Of a stretch of DNA of 16,269 bases, positions 4,631-16,080 are shown in pieces. Within the stretch, counting starts at the first letter, position 1. Every line of letters begins with the position of its first letter. The DNA comes from an uncultured archaeon (GTDB lineage Archaea > Asgardarchaeota > Lokiarchaeia > Sigyniarchaeales > SOKP01). The position numbers were made by a program, and so were the translations under genes. The notes beneath the pieces are model-generated. The model did no database searches and was not told the origin of the DNA. It was given only the letters and a program-made list of their open reading frames with translations. The stretch is from assembly GCA_964493715.1 (NCBI GenBank), contig CAZBPC010000075.1:1-16269 (forward strand), read 5' to 3'.

Positions 4631-7600
4631 TTAGTTTTGATTAGTTTTGATCAATTTGATATTATGTTTGAGTACTTTTGTTAAAGGAAGTTTGCTATAA
4701 TTTTTACTGAATTTAGAAATAGCTTCAAGAGCTTCTTCGTGTTTTTTAAGAGCTTCTACATAGCTTTTTTGTTCTAAGTAAGTAAGTCCCAATTTATAGT
4801 GTGATTCAGCGATTCCTTCATAATTTTCGAGTTGTTCAAAGATTTCAAGAGCTTTATTTGAAGCTTTCCAAGCTTCAGCATAATCTCCCTTATTCAAATG
4901 CACTAATGATAAGTTATTCAAGAATTTTCCTTTAGATTCTGGTTCTTCTATTTCATTAGCAATTTGAATGGCTTCTTTAAATCGTTCTAAAGCAACTGAA
5001 TAATTTCCTTCATCTAAGTATATTAAACCGATATTGTTTAAACTGTCAGCTTTTCTTTTTAAATTATACAAGTCAACTTCTATTTTAAGTACTTCTTCAT
5101 AATTCTTCAAAGCCTCGAGATACTGCTTTTTATCTCGATATATCATCGCCATGTTATAATAGGCTTTTGATTTTTCTTCTGATTCGCCTAAAAATTTAAA
5201 GAATTTAATTGAACGGTCATACCAGCTCAATGCCTCATCATAATTACCTAGATCTTGGTATATTTGACCGATTTTATTAAGACTGTATGTTTTTCCATTC
5301 AAATCTCCAGTTTGATCAAAAATAGAGAGAGCTTGTTCAAAATTCTTCAATGCATCTTTATATACTCCACGATAATGATAAATACCACCTAGTTCATTCA
5401 AAAGATAACCTTTTCTTTCAAGATCATCATTCTCATCAGCAATTTTGAGTGATTGTTGGTATCGAGTTAGTGCTTTAGAATAGTCACCTTGATTTTTATA
5501 TAATTTGCCTAGACTTTCATAGCAATCGCATTTACCTTGAGACCCTTCTATTTCTTCGAATAGTTTTAAAGATTCACTGTACCATTTATAAGCTTCTTCC
5601 AAATTGTTTTGACCGTGATAGATCATTCCTATTTTTCTAAGTGTATTTGCTTGGCCGGATAAATCTCCAATTTGCTCCTTAATCTCAAGTGCATTTTTGT
5701 ATTTTTTTAAAACCTCATCGTAATCATTCCAAACGAGATGTACACTTCCAATATTCAATAAATGTTCTGCTTTTGCTTTTATATCTCCCAATTCTTCATC
5801 AATCTCAAGAGCTTTTTCAAACCAATTTAAAGCTTGAGGAAAGTCTTCTTCTTCGTAATATATAATTCCAATACTATTGAAAATGTTAGCTTTTCCTTCA
5901 AGATTGCTTAATTTTTCGACAACATTAAGAGCGTCTTGAAAACGTCTAATTGATTCAGGATAATGCTTTTGTGCTTGATAAATTTCCGCAATTGTTTTTA
6001 AGATGTTTACTTGCTCGTCTAAATTTCCCATATTTTCCGCTATTACTAAACTTTCTTCATACCTCCTTAAAGCTTCCACGAAATCCCATTGCTCCCTAAA
6101 TATTTCGCCCATTTTATTAAGGGAATCAAACTTTTTATGTAAATTTCCTATTTGATCAGCAATCTGAATTGCGGCTTCGAAACTTTCTAAAGCTAACTTG
6201 TCATTCCCTTGATAATGATAATTCAAGCCAATATTATACAAACAACTAATATTTCCATCATAATTAAGCTCAGCTTTGAAAATTTCAATAGCATTATCAA
6301 ACATCTTCTTTGCTTTATCATAATAACCTTGATCTTGAAAAATGGTGCCTATTTTATTTAGTAGATCAGCCTTTTTTTCTGGTTCTTCCAACTTCTCAAT
6401 TATCTCTAATGAATCATTATATCTTTTTAGTGCTTCAGTGTAGTCCGCTTGCTCTTGATAAAATGAACCTAGGTTTTTGAGCGTTTCTGCGCTTCCTTCT
6501 AAGCTTTCTATTTCAGTAAAAATGTCAAGAGCTTGTTGAAAGTATTCTAAAGCTTTATTAAAATTTCTTTGTTCGACAAATATCAATCCAATGGTGTTAA
6601 GAAACGTTGCGGTTCCTCGAGTATCATTCAAACGCTGATGAATTTCCAGGATTTTTTCAAAACGTCTTAAAGCTTTCGAGTAATTTCGCTGTTCCTTGTA
6701 TATTAATCCTACATTTTTTAACGTTTCCACTTTTCCTCGAAGGTTGCCAATCTGATCATACAACAAGAGAGCGGCTTCAAGCCATTCAAGTGCTTCGAAA
6801 TATTTATCTTGATTTCGAAAAATAATTCCTATTTGAGTAGAAAATTTTGCTTGTTTTTCAATCTTACCGTAGTCTTCTGCTAATTGAACAGCTTCTTTAA
6901 AATATTCATAAGCTCTTGGATAATTCCATTGATCTCTAAAAATCTCTCCCAGATTGTTTAAAACATCCATCTTTCCTTCAATAAATTGCATTTGGTTAAA
7001 TAATTCTAAAGCATTATTACAATTTTCAATTCCCAAAATTGAATTCCCAATCATGTGTTGAATCAAGCCTAGATTATTAAGAATATTCCCTTTTTCAATC
7101 ATATTTCCAAGCGTATCATTTATATCCATTGCTTCATCCAAACATTTTAATGCAGCTGAGAGATTTTTACTTCTAACGAGAGTAGCAGCAATATTTTTTA
7201 GTTTAAAAGCTTTTTCCTGCAGATCATTTAATTTTTCATCTAATTTTAATGAGGTTTCAAAATTTTTAATAGCTTCCTTATAGTTAGATCTTTCTAAGTC
7301 TAATAATCCTAATTGATTGTACAATTCTGATTCAATTCTCATATCTTTGTATTTTAAATTTATTTTTAATCCTTGCTGGAAAAAATTATACGCTTCATCA
7401 AAATTTCCTTGAGCTTGATATATTAAACCTATATTCTTGAAGATTGAAATTCTTTGAGGAAATATTTTTAATTTGACTTGTGATTGAAGGGCTTTTTTAA
7501 ACCATTCTAAAGCTTTCTCAAATTCATTTTGTTCCAAATTAACAATACCCATATTCATTAGAGAGATCGTCTTCCATTTATCATCAGTTTTTTCCTCGGC

Positions 7601-8707
7601 TAATCTATAAATCCTTTCTAGACACCTTAAAGCATCTTTATATTGCTTATTTTCATGATATATCTTAAATGCAGTGTATAATTTTACTTCATCAGTAAGT
7701 TCTTTAATTGATTTTTTTATCCGTTCAGAGAGATCAAATTCAAATCCTTCCTTGCTAATAAATTCAGTGCTTTTAATTAACTCGTTTAAAAGTGTCTTGG
7801 TATTAATATCTAATCTATAGACATTTACACCATGATTTATTCGTGCGATGTCCAATAATATTTGATCTAATTCATCAATATCTATTATTGATTGAATTTT
7901 ATTGTCTTTGATTTCTTTTAGTTCAGTTATATTCTTGGTTTTTTCATCATGATTAACCCATATCAAATTCTTCAATGAATCCATCTGTTTAATTGTAGGT
8001 GTTATGTCAAGGTCGTTTTTGCCAGAATACCCTAAAACTATTAAATTTCTATCTTTTGATATGTTTCCAATGACTTGAGCTTTATATGGTTCTAATTGAA
8101 TGAGATTATGTCTTTCTTGATTCATTCCTAATAATTTTATAGTATCTATGAGAGATTCTTGCGTATTTTCACCCGTAATTAGATTAGTAGAGGACCCATG
8201 AATTTTATAAACTGCAATCTTACCACTAGTAAATAATTTTTCAGGATTCACATACTTCTCATAATCCCGTTGAGTTATTACGGGCACGATTTTTTTTCGA
8301 GGTATATTTAAGGTTAGAAGCGCAATTTCAATAAGGTGATCGAAATTTGTCGTTATAACATAACTTCCATTGGTAACCATTTCTGCTAGAAAGAAATGTT
8401 CAATGTTTGGTTTATCACACTCGGAAAAGAAGTCAATTAGATCGGAATCTTCGCCAATTATAGAATACACTATCATTAAAACTTGTTCTAAAGTTAATTT
8501 TTCCAATTCAAGTATTTTATCAATTTCAGATTTATTAATCGTCGATTCTATGATTAATTTAATAAAATCCCGTGCATCAGGTAAGTTAGATGGTGACAAA
8601 ACCGAACAACCAGCTCCTACCAGAAAGGTTAATGATTTTTCATCTTTAATATATTCTTGAAAATTTAGTTTTGAAATTTCTTTTGTAGAGACCAAATTTT
8701 TTCGCAC
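4631..8707 (-). CDS. SIR2-like (SIR2_2-type, putative NADase) domain fused to a long TPR solenoid
   Basis: N-terminal sirtuin motifs FLVGAGCS…LPD, PNIEH, ITTNFD, KIHGS and LGYSGKND, followed by 25 consecutive 40-aa TPR units. The true start may be TTG 8695, which has GGAGTG 9 nt upstream. Confidence 0.88.
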   Translation of the reverse strand: MRKNLVSTKEISKLNFQEYIKDEKSLTFLVGAGCSVLSPSNLPDARDFIKLIIESTINKSEIDKILELEKLTLEQVLMIVYSIIGEDSDLIDFFSECDKPNIEHFFLAEMVTNGSYVITTNFDHLIEIALLTLNIPRKKIVPVITQRDYEKYVNPEKLFTSGKIAVYKIHGSSTNLITGENTQESLIDTIKLLGMNQERHNLIQLEPYKAQVIGNISKDRNLIVLGYSGKNDLDITPTIKQMDSLKNLIWVNHDEKTKNITELKEIKDNKIQSIIDIDELDQILLDIARINHGVNVYRLDINTKTLLNELIKSTEFISKEGFEFDLSERIKKSIKELTDEVKLYTAFKIYHENKQYKDALRCLERIYRLAEEKTDDKWKTISLMNMGIVNLEQNEFEKALEWFKKALQSQVKLKIFPQRISIFKNIGLIYQAQGNFDEAYNFFQQGLKINLKYKDMRIESELYNQLGLLDLERSNYKEAIKNFETSLKLDEKLNDLQEKAFKLKNIAATLVRSKNLSAALKCLDEAMDINDTLGNMIEKGNILNNLGLIQHMIGNSILGIENCNNALELFNQMQFIEGKMDVLNNLGEIFRDQWNYPRAYEYFKEAVQLAEDYGKIEKQAKFSTQIGIIFRNQDKYFEALEWLEAALLLYDQIGNLRGKVETLKNVGLIYKEQRNYSKALRRFEKILEIHQRLNDTRGTATFLNTIGLIFVEQRNFNKALEYFQQALDIFTEIESLEGSAETLKNLGSFYQEQADYTEALKRYNDSLEIIEKLEEPEKKADLLNKIGTIFQDQGYYDKAKKMFDNAIEIFKAELNYDGNISCLYNIGLNYHYQGNDKLALESFEAAIQIADQIGNLHKKFDSLNKMGEIFREQWDFVEALRRYEESLVIAENMGNLDEQVNILKTIAEIYQAQKHYPESIRRFQDALNVVEKLSNLEGKANIFNSIGIIYYEEEDFPQALNWFEKALEIDEELGDIKAKAEHLLNIGSVHLVWNDYDEVLKKYKNALEIKEQIGDLSGQANTLRKIGMIYHGQNNLEEAYKWYSESLKLFEEIEGSQGKCDCYESLGKLYKNQGDYSKALTRYQQSLKIADENDDLERKGYLLNELGGIYHYRGVYKDALKNFEQALSIFDQTGDLNGKTYSLNKIGQIYQDLGNYDEALSWYDRSIKFFKFLGESEEKSKAYYNMAMIYRDKKQYLEALKNYEEVLKIEVDLYNLKRKADSLNNIGLIYLDEGNYSVALERFKEAIQIANEIEEPESKGKFLNNLSLVHLNKGDYAEAWKASNKALEIFEQLENYEGIAESHYKLGLTYLEQKSYVEALKKHEEALEAISKFSKNYSKLPLTKVLKHNIKLIKTNQN
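4682..7681 (-). repeat. 25 tandem 40-aa (120-nt) TPR-type protein repeats, residues 343-1342
   Basis: Manual alignment in 40-aa register gives consensus LNxIGxIYxxQGxYxEALxxFExALxIxExLxxxxxKAxx with no indels. Units are diverged at the DNA level. Confidence 0.9.
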
Positions 8708-11774: not shown

Positions 11775-12509
11775 ATGAAGAATAAATCAAATGTAGATGA
11801 TTTAGAATCAGATCTAAATGATCTTATTGAAAAACAATTGAATGCAAACACTGGAATATTGGGAATAAGTGTTTCAACTCATGGGGGTACATATCTTGCC
11901 AGTAAATTTAAGAAGGAACCATCGATGTCAAAAACAGAAATATCTGCAGCGAGTAGTAGCTTAGTATTCTTATCTTCAAAAATATTGCAAGATTCTTTGA
12001 ATCAAAAAATTTCCTATAATATGATTACAGGACGAAAACGAATTATTTTATCAATTTTAACAGAAAACATAGCTTTAATATCCTTTTTAAATAGACAATT
12101 AGCTGAACTTGAAGGTTTAGATAAGTTCATTAAAATATTAAAACAATTTGCCATTCATATATCAGCAATTATAGATACTTCAGATTTAATTAAAGAAGAA
12201 GTCTTTGTTGCCATAAAAAGAGCGATTCCGAACGCTTTAGTAATCGCTATTATCACAAAAGATGGCTTACCAATTAAAATGCAAACTACAATGCCTGAAC
12301 CAATACTTTCGGCTATGACGTCGGCAATCTACAATTTGGCAGGTATATTATTGGAGGAGGGTTTGGAATATTCAATAATAGGAGGAGAATATGGATCGAT
12401 TATTATTCATGAATTAGATCAAAATAGAATTCTTGCTATAGCAGTACCAGAAGCTGATGAACGTAAATTAGGCTCTTATATCGCAAAAATAAAATCAATT
12501 ATTGAATAG
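11775..12509 (+). CDS. Tandem (double) Roadblock/LC7 (LAMTOR2/MglB-like) domain protein
   Basis: Two similar halves: 'GILGISVSTHGGTYLAS…EISAASSSL' and 'NALVIAIITKDGLPIK…ILSAMTSAI…IIGGEYGSIIIHEL…ILAIA…KLG', matching the Roadblock pattern. Confidence 0.8.
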   Translation: MKNKSNVDDLESDLNDLIEKQLNANTGILGISVSTHGGTYLASKFKKEPSMSKTEISAASSSLVFLSSKILQDSLNQKISYNMITGRKRIILSILTENIALISFLNRQLAELEGLDKFIKILKQFAIHISAIIDTSDLIKEEVFVAIKRAIPNALVIAIITKDGLPIKMQTTMPEPILSAMTSAIYNLAGILLEEGLEYSIIGGEYGSIIIHELDQNRILAIAVPEADERKLGSYIAKIKSIIE

Positions 12510-12516
12510 ATTCAAC

Positions 12517-13767
12517 TTACTCTGAAATTATATCATAAATTTTATCAACAATCTTTAAAGCTCCAAAATATGAAGCTGAAAAATCGCGAGCTCCAAATAA
12601 TATTGTACACACGGGATCAAACTTTTGAACAGGATTTTCTGGATCCGATTTATCATGAATATATTCAAGTTTGTTAATTTTGACTAATTCGGATTCACTT
12701 AATTCCGTTGGAGCAAAGACTATCAATTTAGTTGCAAATTGAATAAAGTTACCACTAGACAAAACGTTTTCTATTTCATTCCAATTCTCCGAATTAAAGC
12801 TTTTAACATGCAAATCCAAAAGATTGATGTTAAATGCGAGCTCTGAAGCTCTAATTGATCCAGGTATTCGAGGATTTATTTCCATCAAATACGGATATTG
12901 ATTCCTCACAACAAAATCAAAACCATTTATCCCTTGAAGCTTTAACCCTTTTGCTAACAGTAGAGAAATATTCGCAATAAGATCCTTAATCCTGCTCCCA
13001 ATTTGGGCGGGAACGACATTACCACAATACATAAAATCTCTAGGTGCATTCAGGTACTTTTCTCCGATTATTTGACGATTAATAGATATGACTTTACAAT
13101 GAATTCCATCAGAAATTATTGTACAACTCACAGGAATTCCTTCAATGTATTCTTGTATTACCCAATCTGATACATTTTCTATCTTAGATTCAAGCAGTTT
13201 AAGAGTAAATTCTAAAGTATCTCTATTGTCTATTTTAAAGATATTTATTCCTCCTGAACTTCTAAATTTTTTTATAATAAAAGGAAAACCCTTATAATTC
13301 TTGATGTCTTCTATGCTTTTTGGAAAATTCGTCTCTGGCACTTTATATCCATTTTTAACCAAAATTTCAAAAATTCCCTTTATATTCCTAGCCTTCATTA
13401 CCACTTCTAAATCATTGTTCACGCTAAGAATGTATTTATTTTTTTTACGGATCTCCTCCAGCAGGAATTTTCTATCATCGAAAGCATCATCCAAACCACT
13501 TCCAATAATCAAATACTCTATTTTAGGGTATTTATTTGAAATTTTAATCGCAAATTCAACAAGATATTGATGATATTTTTCTTTAATTGAGTCATAATTC
13601 GTGTTTAATTCTTCCGTGATTATAATTGCATCTTTAACATAAGGGAAAAGATCCAAGTCTCCGAAGAAATCTACAGCATAGACGTCATAATTTGCTTTGA
13701 AAAGAGAGAAAGCTAATGGCCGGATATTAAACCCAATAACCAAAACAGATTTTGATTTGTGAGACAT
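12517..13767 (-). CDS. ATP-grasp carboligase (COG2232/ATP-grasp_3-like)
   Basis: N-terminal 'VLVIGFNIRPLA…AVDFFGDLDL' and ATP-grasp motifs 'PFIIK…SSGG', 'IQEYIEGIPVS', 'GINGFDF' and 'LMEINPR'. Confidence 0.85.
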   Translation of the reverse strand: MSHKSKSVLVIGFNIRPLAFSLFKANYDVYAVDFFGDLDLFPYVKDAIIITEELNTNYDSIKEKYHQYLVEFAIKISNKYPKIEYLIIGSGLDDAFDDRKFLLEEIRKKNKYILSVNNDLEVVMKARNIKGIFEILVKNGYKVPETNFPKSIEDIKNYKGFPFIIKKFRSSGGINIFKIDNRDTLEFTLKLLESKIENVSDWVIQEYIEGIPVSCTIISDGIHCKVISINRQIIGEKYLNAPRDFMYCGNVVPAQIGSRIKDLIANISLLLAKGLKLQGINGFDFVVRNQYPYLMEINPRIPGSIRASELAFNINLLDLHVKSFNSENWNEIENVLSSGNFIQFATKLIVFAPTELSESELVKINKLEYIHDKSDPENPVQKFDPVCTILFGARDFSASYFGALKIVDKIYDIISE

Positions 13768-13842: not shown

Positions 13843-14733
13843 TTAGAGAATCTTCTTTAATTCTAAGATCAAATGTTCTGGATCATACTTGTCAAATTGA
13901 AAGATTTCTGCTTTACCATATTTCTTAAAATTTTTCTTTATTTTTTCTGCTGCAAAAGTATTTACTCCCAAAGCTCTAGTTGCATAACTTTTTTTAGGTT
14001 CTAATACCACCAGATGAACACCCTTTTTTGACAAGATCTTCGTCTGTTCTTTTAATTCATTTATTATAATTGAGTAATCCTCTTGTACTTGGGCTATTAG
14101 ATCAGGGTATTTAGCGGATATATTCGCCCCGCAATCAGAACATATGAAAATTACTGGCACCATGGTACGATTCTTCAACTTTTCCGCATCGATTAATTTT
14201 AAACACTTTGTTATAGCAGCCGCCATAGGAGTGTATGACTTTCCTTCTATTTTCTTCATTTTTTGAACCGCTGTTTTGAAGTAGACCGTCGGATTTTGTA
14301 AAACTATCGCTTCTTTTCCCCTAAAAATTATCAAACTGATCTTATCTTTCTTTCGGTAGCCTTCTTTGTGAAGTGACATGATGATATCTGTCATTTGCTT
14401 TATTACGTAATACATACTTGCCGAACTATCCAGAACAAAAAATAACACCAGCGGTGCGCGATATTCATAAATTTTATCCATTAAATCATACTTATTGAAT
14501 TTTATTGGATATTTTATCTCTGAATCATTGTAGAGGGTATTTTTCAAATAACTTCTAATAGTTGCATCTAACGCAATGCTTTTAGGTCGGTGTCTAGGAG
14601 TTCTATAAGAGACATAGCGTCCTTTTTGTGTCGAAGCAATTTTGATTCTCCTCCCTATCCCCCTTCCACCATAATCCGATACTTTCCTGTCTTTTCGAAT
14701 GTTATCGAGAATTGCGGTCATCTTTTTCTCCAT
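13843..14733 (-). CDS. chlD: VWA (integrin-I) domain of a ChlD-type chelatase medium subunit; probably the 3' part of a longer gene starting at 16080
   Basis: 'GRYVSYR…IALDATIR' pre-VWA segment, MIDAS 'FVLDSSASM', 'YRKKDKISLIIFRG', 'TPMA' and 'SDCGAN'. In frame with the upstream AAA ORF. Confidence 0.8.
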   Translation of the reverse strand: MEKKMTAILDNIRKDRKVSDYGGRGIGRRIKIASTQKGRYVSYRTPRHRPKSIALDATIRSYLKNTLYNDSEIKYPIKFNKYDLMDKIYEYRAPLVLFFVLDSSASMYYVIKQMTDIIMSLHKEGYRKKDKISLIIFRGKEAIVLQNPTVYFKTAVQKMKKIEGKSYTPMAAAITKCLKLIDAEKLKNRTMVPVIFICSDCGANISAKYPDLIAQVQEDYSIIINELKEQTKILSKKGVHLVVLEPKKSYATRALGVNTFAAEKIKKNFKKYGKAEIFQFDKYDPEHLILELKKIL

Positions 14734-15033
14734 TGTATAAATGAGGGGAATCGACTTAGACCCGTTTTCAAAAAATTCTAGATCGACGATTTCATAAGGG
14801 ATATCTTTTACTTTCCAACCCCCTGCTGGTTGAGGGCTCCGTTTTTTATTGTCAGGATATTTAGGAGGAGGAAGCTTTTGCTCTTTAGTTTCAGGAACCT
14901 TTACCTTTCTAGGGTCAATGGATTGTCGCTTGAACTCATTTTGAGGCGTATCATCATGTTTTAAAGGCCCTTCAGTATCTTTACTGGGTTGATAAGCTCT
15001 AGGATCCTCATAAGCTTTTTCAATTTGTCCGGC
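14734..15033 (-). other. Unannotated 100-codon in-frame Pro/charged linker between the AAA and VWA ORFs
   Basis: Translates without stop as AGQIEKAYEDPRAYQPSKDTEGPLKHDDTPQNEFKRQSIDPRKVKVPETKEQKLPPPKYPDNKKRSPQPAGGWKVKDIPYEIVDLEFFENGSKSIPLIYT and runs into MEKKM. It has no in-frame ATG/GTG/TTG. Confidence 0.88.
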
Positions 15034-16080
15034 TTAAAGAGGAATTCTCTGTAATTTTCCGTAAACCTCAGTAATTTTAGCCTTAACTTCTTCGGGTGTC
15101 ATTTCATAATGTAGAGATTGAATCCTATGCTCGAAAACAAGATCGAGGGCGATATTTAAATCTTCTTCAGCAATTTCTTTTCTTCCTTCCAAAGCTGCAT
15201 GAGCACGTGCACATCGAATGAAAGTTATGTCTGCTCGTTGAGAAAAAATACCCAATTCACTTACAATCTCCGATACAAATTCAAAAACAGATATAGGAAC
15301 TACGACATCTTTAAGAATTTGTCTCGCTTTTATAATCTTGGTCTTTAGTAATTCTTGTTCATGTTCGAAAGGTTTGATAAATTCTTTGGGATTATCATCA
15401 AACTCGATTACACTCCGAGTTATGTCTGCTCGTAGCTTACGATCTCGAGGTGCTTTAATTTTAACCTCCAATCCAAGACGATCCGCTATTTGCGGCCTGA
15501 GTTCTCCTTCCTCGGGGTTCATACTACCGACCAATACAAATCGAGAGGGATGAGCCACTGAAATTCCTTCACGTTCAATGATGTTCACTCCAGATGCGGC
15601 AGAGTCTAATAAGACATCAACTATATGATCTTGGAGTAAATTAATCTCATCTACATATAATATGCCCCGATTTGCTTTAGCAAGTAACCCTGGATGAAGG
15701 CTTCGGATTCCTTCAGTGAGGACTTTATCAATAGAGAGCGCACCGCAAACCATGTCTTCTGTTACCCCTAAGGGCAACTCTGTAATTCGCATTTTCCTCT
15801 TTTCAAGCTCAATTGTGCCATTTTTTCTCTTTTCGCGACACTCATCACATAAATCTTCGGATTCTAAATTCGGATCGCAAGAAAATACGCATCCTTTAAC
15901 CACTTCAATTTCAGGCATGACCTCAACCAAGCTTCTCACAGCAGTCGATTTTCCAGTTCCTTGTTGCCCAGTTAGCAAGACTCCACTAATTTGAGGGTCA
16001 ATTACATTCAAAATGAGCCCCATTTTCATTCTATCTTGACCGAGTATTGCCGTAAATGGGAAATTAATCCTTTTTACCAT
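15034..16080 (-). CDS. chlI: AAA+ ATPase of ChlI/ChlD chelatase type (ChlI-sized product, or 5' part of chlD)
   Basis: FPFTAILGQ, Walker A GQQGTGKST, Cys insert CVFSCDP…CDEC, LPLGVTED, PGLLAKANRGILYVDE (Walker B), GSMNPEEGELRPQIADR and sensor-2-like SQRA. Confidence 0.85.
   Translation of the reverse strand: MVKRINFPFTAILGQDRMKMGLILNVIDPQISGVLLTGQQGTGKSTAVRSLVEVMPEIEVVKGCVFSCDPNLESEDLCDECREKRKNGTIELEKRKMRITELPLGVTEDMVCGALSIDKVLTEGIRSLHPGLLAKANRGILYVDEINLLQDHIVDVLLDSAASGVNIIEREGISVAHPSRFVLVGSMNPEEGELRPQIADRLGLEVKIKAPRDRKLRADITRSVIEFDDNPKEFIKPFEHEQELLKTKIIKARQILKDVVVPISVFEFVSEIVSELGIFSQRADITFIRCARAHAALEGRKEIAEEDLNIALDLVFEHRIQSLHYEMTPEEVKAKITEVYGKLQRIPL

Follow-up and report, generated by a model that had tools for sequence, protein, structure and literature searches.

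A 30-nt stop-containing insert in an Asgard chlD-like gene as a probable bulge-helix-bulge mini-intron

Introduction

An intron of the bulge-helix-bulge (BHB) type was reportedly found in the cbf5 pre-mRNA of Crenarchaeota by Watanabe in 2002. The present work concerns a chlD-like gene on contig CAZBPC010000075.1 of an uncultured Asgard archaeon (assembly GCA_964493715.1), a stretch of 16,269 nucleotides (nt) that is called the window hereafter. The gene is interrupted in the DNA by an in-frame TAA, which a sequence-only reading of the window had taken as the site of a zero-frame UAA bypass allowing one gene to yield two chelatase subunits. We consider instead, with a probability of roughly three in four, that the TAA belongs to a BHB mini-intron that is cut out of the mRNA by the tRNA-splicing endonuclease EndA and the ligase RtcB, i.e., that it is not a site of UAA readthrough.

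The closest described systems fall into two groups. On the side of splicing, the cbf5 pre-mRNA intron of Crenarchaeota is described as short, lineage-specific, and absent from orthologues (Yokobori 2009, PMC2738675), and Haloferax volcanii HVO_1309 has a 46-nt BHB intron in its 5' untranslated region (PMC7714728). In the accessible text of the latter paper, from 2020, cbf5 is still the only mRNA BHB intron besides the authors' own case, and as far as the accessible text of these two papers goes, coding-sequence BHB introns in archaea are confirmed for one gene family, cbf5 (PMC2738675, 2009; PMC7714728, 2020). Within Asgard archaea, the tRNA genes are described as having repeatedly gained short inserts in the form of BHB introns (bioRxiv 10.64898/2026.10.13.758758), and the EndA described for the group is an (alpha-beta)2 enzyme with a loop linked to a broad substrate range (PMC5829648). 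On the side of recoding, frameshift-dependent chlD genes are described as giving ChlI-like and ChlD-like subunits from one gene (Antonov; PMC9227772).

The chlD-like gene and its internal stop codon

Genomes are referred to by G-numbers and loci by L-numbers, G000 being the window's own genome (160 contigs, rated 100% complete). From 16080 to 13843 on the minus strand, the window holds 746 codons in a single frame, with a terminal TAA and one internal TAA (15036-15034) after codon 348; the listing of open reading frames (ORFs) has 15034..16080, encoding 348 amino acids (aa), and 13843..14733, encoding 296 aa from an ATG. The 100 codons between the internal TAA and the ATG at 14733 read through without a stop and without any ATG, GTG, or TTG. 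The site is bridged without a listed difference by contigs from three DNA runs (X1 record 2, possibly the window's source; X4 record 13; and X15 record 7, from a separate study). The sequence-only description of one 746-codon frame with a single internal TAA, and of an open 300-nt "gap" that lacks a start codon of its own, therefore stands.

Pfam assigns AAA_lid_2, Mg_chelatase, and AAA_5 to the first part of the gene and VWA_2 to the second. In NCBIfam both parts match TIGR02442 ("putative cobaltochelatase") best, the first over profile positions 1-317 and the second over 328-622. The layout of an AAA+ module, a Pro-rich linker, and a VWA domain with a metal ion-dependent adhesion site (MIDAS) is the ChlD-type architecture. 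Within the translation we find GTGKS, VDEIN, and DSSAS, which we take to be the Walker A, Walker B, and MIDAS motifs. By both Pfam and NCBIfam, the internal stop falls at the end of the ChlI-like module.

The gene of G022 differs from that of G000 at 293 of 2238 nt and 59 of 746 residues, with no indel, no second stop in the 2238 nt, and the TAA at the same codon. The synonymous divergence (dS) between the two is about 0.5-1.1, and the ratio of nonsynonymous to synonymous divergence (dN/dS) is 0.071 in the AAA+ part, 0.108 in the 100 start-less codons after the TAA (dS 0.61; 41 differences, distributed 8/5/28 by codon position), and 0.035 in the VWA part. Because dN/dS is low on both sides of the TAA, a pseudogene is excluded, and the purifying selection on the start-less codons indicates that this region is translated and that a full-length AAA+/linker/VWA protein must still be made, as had been supposed from the window alone. 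Judged from these substitution patterns, either translation or the message itself is carried across the stop by something.

The stop codon lies in a 30-nt insert confined to one clade

In G000, G022, and G001, the TAA sits within 10 extra codons (30 nt, in frame) between EVYGK(I/L)Q and KAYEDP, and these codons are absent from all 20 uninterrupted orthologues of a 23-row alignment. Removing them gives YGK-IEKAYEDP, to be compared with the orthologous YGK-I(Q/E)KAYEDP, and a product of 735 aa, where the uninterrupted orthologues have 735-736 aa.

A chlD-like match was present in 38 of the 41 genomes of the genus. The gene is uninterrupted in 26 of these (open frames of 736-753 aa), carries the TAA in three (G000, G022, and G001, the G001 copy ending at a contig end at residue 462), falls into two adjacent pieces near residue 190 in seven, and is partial in two. 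A survey of metagenomes and of the genome_contigs set added 122 further loci. Among the metagenome loci the insert occurs in 4 of 60 informative ones (L043, L044, L046, and L047), these being all the informative loci at 94-96% identity; among the genome_contigs loci it occurs in 2 of 58 informative ones (L113 and L114, possibly the same records as G022 and G001) and is lacking in the other 56. The next nearest loci, at 81-82% identity, do not have it. The seven carrier DNA sequences, i.e., three species-level genomes and four metagenome contigs, form one clade nested in the genus, with a Shimodaira-Hasegawa-like approximate likelihood-ratio support (SH-aLRT) of 100 in a quick tree whose careful counterpart was unfinished.

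A strain-specific nonsense mutation, which the sequence-only reading had named as the outcome that would speak against it, is ruled out by the sharing of the TAA among three species-level genomes and four metagenome contigs, with the insert in a single clade. The stop is kept in sister lineages while the linker stays open; it belongs to a 30-nt insert, and 26 genomes of the genus have the gene uninterrupted.

The insert is also more variable than its surroundings. Among five distinct insert sequences, 10 of 30 insert columns vary, compared with 4 of 40 flanking exon columns, and all six codons that differ between the inserts of G000 and L044 differ nonsynonymously (alignment read by eye). On this comparative evidence the insert evolves without protein-level constraint and seems to behave as a non-coding structured RNA. 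A tandem-duplication origin was considered and set aside: as judged by eye, resemblance to the adjacent GK(I/L)Q(K/R) codons is limited to roughly the first 15 nt, and the remainder differs. As a separate observation, the L047 gene, otherwise similar to that of L044, gives two overlapping tblastn pieces (1-508 and 505-735) near residue 505, a possible frameshift or other interruption.

Fit of the insert to a BHB intron

We propose that the chlD-like gene acquired a 30-nt BHB-type mini-intron in the ancestor from which a small clade within one genus of the Promethearchaeota (Asgard) descends. On the pre-mRNA, ACGG at the end of exon 1 would pair with CCGG at the 3' end of the insert. This short central helix would be flanked by two 3-nt bulges, one on each strand, and the remaining letters of the insert would form a hairpin with the TAA in its stem. 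EndA would then cut each bulge behind its second nucleotide, at two points 30 nt from each other, RtcB would join the exons, and the spliced message would encode a 735-aa AAA+/linker/VWA protein like the uninterrupted orthologues. Both the cutting and joining by these enzymes and the occurrence of splicing in the window's own organism are what we infer from the observations below. The machinery is encoded in G000, which has two EndA-domain genes, at C5:38084-38308 and C58:18731-18976, besides one RtcB locus; the two PF01974 matches score 102 and 68 bits. RtcB, the ligase to which the joining of BHB-cut exons would fall, is itself BHB-interrupted in G000.

The letters of the insert accommodate this structure as follows. 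The hairpin consists of AGAG/CTCT and TTA/TAA stems, so that the stop codon is itself one stem strand, and each strand of the ACGG/CCGG pairing is followed by a 3-nt bulge, the two lying on opposite sides. Archaeal BHB introns are described as being cut between the second and third bulge residues (PMC2738675), and when this rule is applied, the two predicted cuts fall exactly 30 nt apart and define an intron at 15027-15056, the register of which can slide by up to 2 nt because of a shared AA. A relaxed BHB scan for lengths of 12-90 spanning the TAA returned three candidates, and only the 30-nt one restores an orthologue-like junction. Over the carriers, 84% of the model cells are paired, compared with 31-52% when the partners are slid, and no variable insert column breaks a model pair. 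L044 and L047 turn three mismatches of G000 into pairs (an A-U in the central helix, another A-U, and a G.U), which gives them a central helix of 4 bp.

An insert-less junction in an RNA library

Record 10 of run X20, a Logan contig from a metatranscriptome (258 nt, depth 2.1), fits window positions 15055-15279 with 17 differences, and 33 further letters beyond 15055 do not fit the window. The insert-bearing DNA contig L043 has the same letter as this record at 12 of 12 comparable variant positions, and two additional differences in L043 would complete the total of 17. Furthermore, the first 33 nt of L043 exon 2, reverse-complemented, contain exactly the 30 loose letters that are shown of the record. 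Taken together, these matches imply that record 10 runs from exon 1 straight into exon 2 of the L043 lineage, at a junction consistent with the predicted cuts when the freedom of register in the A-run is allowed for. RNA without the insert is seen here alongside DNA with the insert, in a sister lineage; no such joint or loose end occurs at the site in DNA runs X1, X4, and X15. X20 covers 7 of 30 bins of the gene, and its record 11 (208 nt) is identical to window positions 15434-15641, ending short of the junction. The window's own gene is represented in the metatranscriptome library, which is no proof of transcription.

Points against the intron model

A number of observations weigh against splicing of a BHB intron at this site. 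A strict BHB scan around the TAA found no 30-nt motif, and a relaxed definition was needed; the relaxed pattern occurs at 1,686 of 7,336,620 positions of the G000 genome, a chance rate that is post hoc because the motif was defined after the site had been seen. The central helix of G000, G022, G001, L043, and L046 has three pairs and an A.G mismatch, and the outer helix has only two A-U pairs. Double-sided covariation is absent among the five distinct insert sequences. The 51-nt region folds no better than chance when compared with shuffled versions (z = -0.13), and the BHB conformer is less stable than the competing minimum-free-energy fold, at -0.6 versus -6.9 kcal/mol in G000 and -6.0 versus -12.6 kcal/mol in the L044-type insert. 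The RNA evidence consists of one contig at a depth of 2.1, from a sister lineage rather than from G000, whose own junction the X20 contigs do not span. DNA carry-over in the RNA library is a possible source of this contig, and since a 7-nt direct repeat flanks the insert in L043, template switching by reverse transcriptase could mimic splicing.

The insert as modelled fits a relaxed BHB motif, the bulge positions and the 30-nt spacing agreeing with it and the fold being weak in G000. Most likely the gene is repaired by splicing of its RNA, a very rare event among archaeal protein genes, and further inserts of the same kind in the genus bear on whether it occurs here.

Further BHB-type inserts in the genus

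In sister species the same gene contains a 32-nt frame-shifting insert between GSMNPE and EGELRPQ, near residue 190. The insert conforms to the strict BHB definition in all five sequences inspected (L017-L020 and L022): the CCGA/TCGG helix is 4 bp long, the bulges read AGN and AAA, and the outer helix is formed by 2 bp of G-C. Pairing holds in 65 of 65 model cells, and one pair is changed on both sides. G042 and G050 show an alike two-piece pattern near residue 190 and stand outside the five sequences inspected, and G004 (L023), whose two pieces are on different contigs, is not counted as a carrier. The carriers are scattered on the gene tree, a distribution that suggests repeated gain or loss.

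The only RtcB locus of G000 (L108, C2:12136-12164, minus strand) has a 29-nt frame-shifting strict BHB insert between GGVG(Y) and DINCGVR, with a TTGG/CCAA helix and a 9-bp inner stem. The Pfam match covers profile positions 1-46 up to the last residue of exon 1, leaves one junction codon, and resumes with positions 48-426 from the first residue of exon 2. G001 shares this split, which is absent in G022 and in the other genus members with a complete match; RtcB is uninterrupted over profile positions 1-426 in 34 genomes of the genus. Frame-shifting inserts such as those of RtcB and the 32-nt type are beyond rescue by readthrough, and removal at the RNA level is thus the economical common explanation. 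The evidence points to two different introns in the one chlD-like gene of the genus and a third in RtcB.

A genome-wide scan of G000 for strict BHB motifs whose removal merges ORFs gave 316 candidates in 238 loci, of which 43 with a length of <=45 and an inner helix of >=5 were inspected, the other 195 loci being left out. Four were picked by eye; most of the other inspected candidates were gene junctions in AT-rich DNA and were rejected. Pfam searches on the separate exons support three of the four picked candidates. At C39:8748-8777 (L111) and C44:26027-26056 (L110) there are 30-nt strict BHB inserts with in-frame stops, in genes for a NAD-synthase (NadE-like, with the junction between profile positions 143 and 144) and a class-I aminoacyl-tRNA synthetase (LeuRS-like), respectively, and Pfam coverage is seamless across the gap. 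BHB introns in these paralogues are probable, and since both genes have uninterrupted paralogues in G000, they do not prove that splicing is required. The fourth picked candidate, a 30-nt strict BHB at C28:34412-34441 (L112), lies in a VWA_CoxE-like gene, where Pfam did not confirm continuity across the junction.

One gene, two products?

The sequence-only reading had framed the locus as a two-subunit chelatase. No match to CobN/ChlH (PF02514) was found in G000, a genome rated complete in which this absence argues against a classical chelatase; controls matched in 5 of 14 genomes. Nor was there a second ChlI/ChlD-like locus in G000 at E<=1e-3. The uninterrupted orthologue L003 scores 592 bits against TIGR02442, with a cut-off of 779, and 336 bits against TIGR02031, with a cut-off of 499.6. 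The product is a ChlD-like protein of the AAA+/VWA type that falls outside the curated families of chelatases and is without a large subunit. The 26 genus members with an uninterrupted gene carry the fused gene alone, most of them without a separate ChlI-like gene, and as they manage with it, a separate small subunit is not evidently needed. Of the chelatase scheme, then, the lack of a separate chlI is as that scheme would have it, and the two-subunit frame itself is unsupported, PF02514 being absent from G000 and the fused gene sufficing in 26 relatives. G025, G028, and G032 have a separate ChlI-sized match (about 349-367 aa) besides their ChlD-like gene, unlike the window's genus. Of 46 related loci, 37 have an ATP-grasp match beside the chlD-like gene, a conserved pairing hinting at a shared, non-chelatase function.

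Two products might still arise if splicing of the BHB mini-intron were partial or regulated, the unspliced mRNA giving a 348-aa ChlI-like AAA+ protein and the spliced mRNA the 735-aa ChlD-like protein, i.e., two subunits from one gene. We regard this as possible but unlikely. With a readthrough mechanism unsupported, a ChlI-like subunit made by termination could come only from translation of unspliced mRNA. The insert sits at the end of the ChlI-like module, whereas the other inserts sit inside conserved motifs, where the unspliced products would be useless. A two-product gene of this kind would be part of a wider set of BHB mini-introns colonising the genus's protein-coding genes, including RtcB.

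Alternative explanations

Programmed zero-frame UAA readthrough would yield mostly the 348-aa ChlI-like protein and some 745-aa ChlD-like protein that includes the insert residues. It accords with a TAA that is invariant in 7 of 7 carriers while the frame stays open, with purifying selection on downstream codons that have no start codon, and with a stop placed at the end of the ChlI-like module. The invariance of the TAA is, however, accounted for just as well by the hairpin, where it pairs with TTA, and the insert codons, which readthrough would translate, are unconstrained (the six nonsynonymous differences between G000 and L044 given above). The base after the stop varies between carriers (G, A, or T), the insert is wholly absent from the RNA-library contig, and readthrough cannot rescue the frame-shifting inserts in RtcB and at residue 190 of the chlD-like gene. 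No tRNA with a UUA anticodon was found among the 27 tRNAs that ARAGORN detected in G000 with its intron search (16 without it), a set that is incomplete, so that this is no proof; that only 27 were detected suggests that many tRNA genes are interrupted in ways ARAGORN cannot read. With the stop lying in an unconstrained insert that fits a relaxed BHB motif and is missing from the sister-lineage RNA-library contig, the zero-frame bypass first suggested for the window was not borne out, and we consider it improbable. Among the tRNAs, ARAGORN predicts a tRNA-Sec with anticodon TCA at C26:15797-15889 of G000.

Slightly less probable again is a true gene split, in which the AAA+ protein would end at the TAA and a linker-VWA protein would restart by termination-reinitiation at a non-canonical codon, for instance the ATT four codons after the stop. 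The selection after the stop does call for translation of the linker, codon +4 is ATT or ATA in every carrier, and separate ChlI-like and ChlD-like genes exist in G025, G028, and G032, which belong to another family of the order. Yet there is no ATG, GTG, or TTG over 100 codons, the ATT/ATA encodes the Ile of the YGKI(Q/E)K motif found in orthologues, a by-eye reading shows no clear Shine-Dalgarno-like run of purines ahead of the ATT, and the insert-less RNA-library contig is left unexplained.

That the insert has killed the fused protein, leaving the AAA+ part alone or nothing functional, is very improbable. The stop codon in the DNA and the lack of a CobN partner in the genome would suit a decaying gene, but G000 and G022, at a dS of about 0.5-1.1, show neither an indel nor a second stop over 2238 nt, dN/dS downstream of the stop is 0.04-0.11, the ATP-grasp neighbour is conserved, and no overlapping gene was found that could account for the downstream constraint.

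Least likely of all is translational bypass as known from phage T4 gene 60, with peptidyl-tRNA leaving GGA (codon 341) and landing on GGA 30 nt downstream: such GGA codons flank the stop-bearing hairpin exactly 30 nt apart in G000, G022, G001, L043, and L046, but L044 and L047 have GTA at the landing position and keep the insert and the open frame, the stop lies 8 codons past the take-off codon, and the deletion is visible in a nucleic-acid contig and not only in protein.

Feature coordinates and neighbouring genes

The features discussed are collected in Table 1. Rfam gave no match in the window. Apart from the chlD-like locus, the window encodes a 1358-aa protein (4631-8707, minus strand) in which a SIR2_2 domain close to the N-terminus precedes a very long array of TPRs, and a 244-aa protein (11775-12509, plus strand) with a Roadblock/LC7 domain in its C-terminal half.

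Table 1. Coordinates of the chlD-like gene, its predicted intron elements, its neighbour, and the 32-nt inserts of related loci (window positions unless a locus is named).
Feature	Position	Strand	Basis or remark
chlD-like gene (AAA+, Pro-rich linker, VWA/MIDAS), interrupted in DNA	13843..16080	-	frame, Pfam, NCBIfam, orthologue alignment
Exon 1 (gene nt 1-1024): ChlI-like AAA+ module and lid, predicted to end inside the Lys codon after the YG motif	15057..16080	-	Pfam, NCBIfam, BHB model
30-nt insert, predicted BHB mini-intron	15027..15056	-	alignment, BHB model, RNA-library contig
In-frame TAA; modelled 3' strand of the inner helix, pairing with TTA 15052-15054; invariant in 7/7 carriers	15034..15036	-	
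Central-helix 5' strand ACGG (model)	15059..15062	-	then bulge 1 AAA 15056-15058; predicted 5' cut after 15057
Central-helix 3' strand CCGG (TCGT in L044/L047) (model)	15029..15032	-	then bulge 2 ACA 15026-15028; predicted 3' cut after 15027
Exon 2: Pro-rich charged linker and VWA domain; first 100 codons without a canonical start	13843..15026	-	Pfam, dN/dS
ATP-grasp gene, directly downstream of the chlD-like gene	12517..13767	-	Pfam, NCBIfam
32-nt insert regions	L017, L018, L019: 3116-3188; L020, L022: 3113-3185	-	strict BHB

Comparison with known systems

The sequence comparisons point to BHB-type introns in protein genes of a Promethearchaeota genus, which is notable for the host group and for the number of genes. 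Our literature search, whose coverage left out supplements and largely subscription journals, retrieved no report of BHB introns in Asgard protein genes. If the introns are confirmed, gene callers would split or truncate such genes, and screens for recoding would wrongly take them for cases of readthrough or frameshifting. Protein-gene introns excised by the tRNA-splicing machinery would then be something that the closest prokaryotic relatives of eukaryotes tolerate, gain, and lose, and an in-frame, stop-bearing intron at a domain boundary would offer a simple test of whether splicing chooses between two products in archaea.

Like the frameshift-dependent chlD genes (PMC9227772), the present gene has a ChlI-like module as its first third and an interruption at the end of that module, and termination there would give a ChlI-sized protein. 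Unlike in those genes, the frame is the same on both sides, there is neither a frameshift nor a slippery site, the gene is interrupted by 30 nt that are absent from orthologues, cobN/chlH is missing from the genome, and the proposed bypass would act on RNA. The main text of PMC9227772 mentions neither readthrough nor introns.

With the introns of Asgard tRNA genes (bioRxiv 10.64898/2026.10.13.758758), the proposed introns would share the enzyme system, the host group, and the repeated gain of short BHB inserts. That preprint, in its accessible text, deals with tRNA genes only; "protein-coding" is used once there, of neighbours, and "mRNA" never. The HVO_1309 intron (PMC7714728) exemplifies EndA acting on an mRNA, outside tRNA and rRNA, as we propose for the chlD-like gene; it sits in an untranslated leader and measures 46 nt, whereas the chlD-like insert interrupts the coding sequence.

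The closest likeness is to the cbf5 intron (PMC2738675), described as a short insert in a protein gene, lacking in orthologues and gained or lost by lineage, with an often unconventional BHB cut between the second and third bulge residues by a hetero-oligomeric EndA. It too is easily mistaken for recoding, and the paper itself notes the confusion with frameshifting. Splicing of the chlD-like insert is read from one RNA-library contig and not, as for cbf5, from experiment. The chlD-like case also differs from cbf5 in concerning another gene, in an Asgard archaeon and not in Crenarchaeota, with an insert that is in frame and bears a stop at a domain boundary, and in being accompanied by further BHB-interrupted protein genes in the same genome, RtcB among them.

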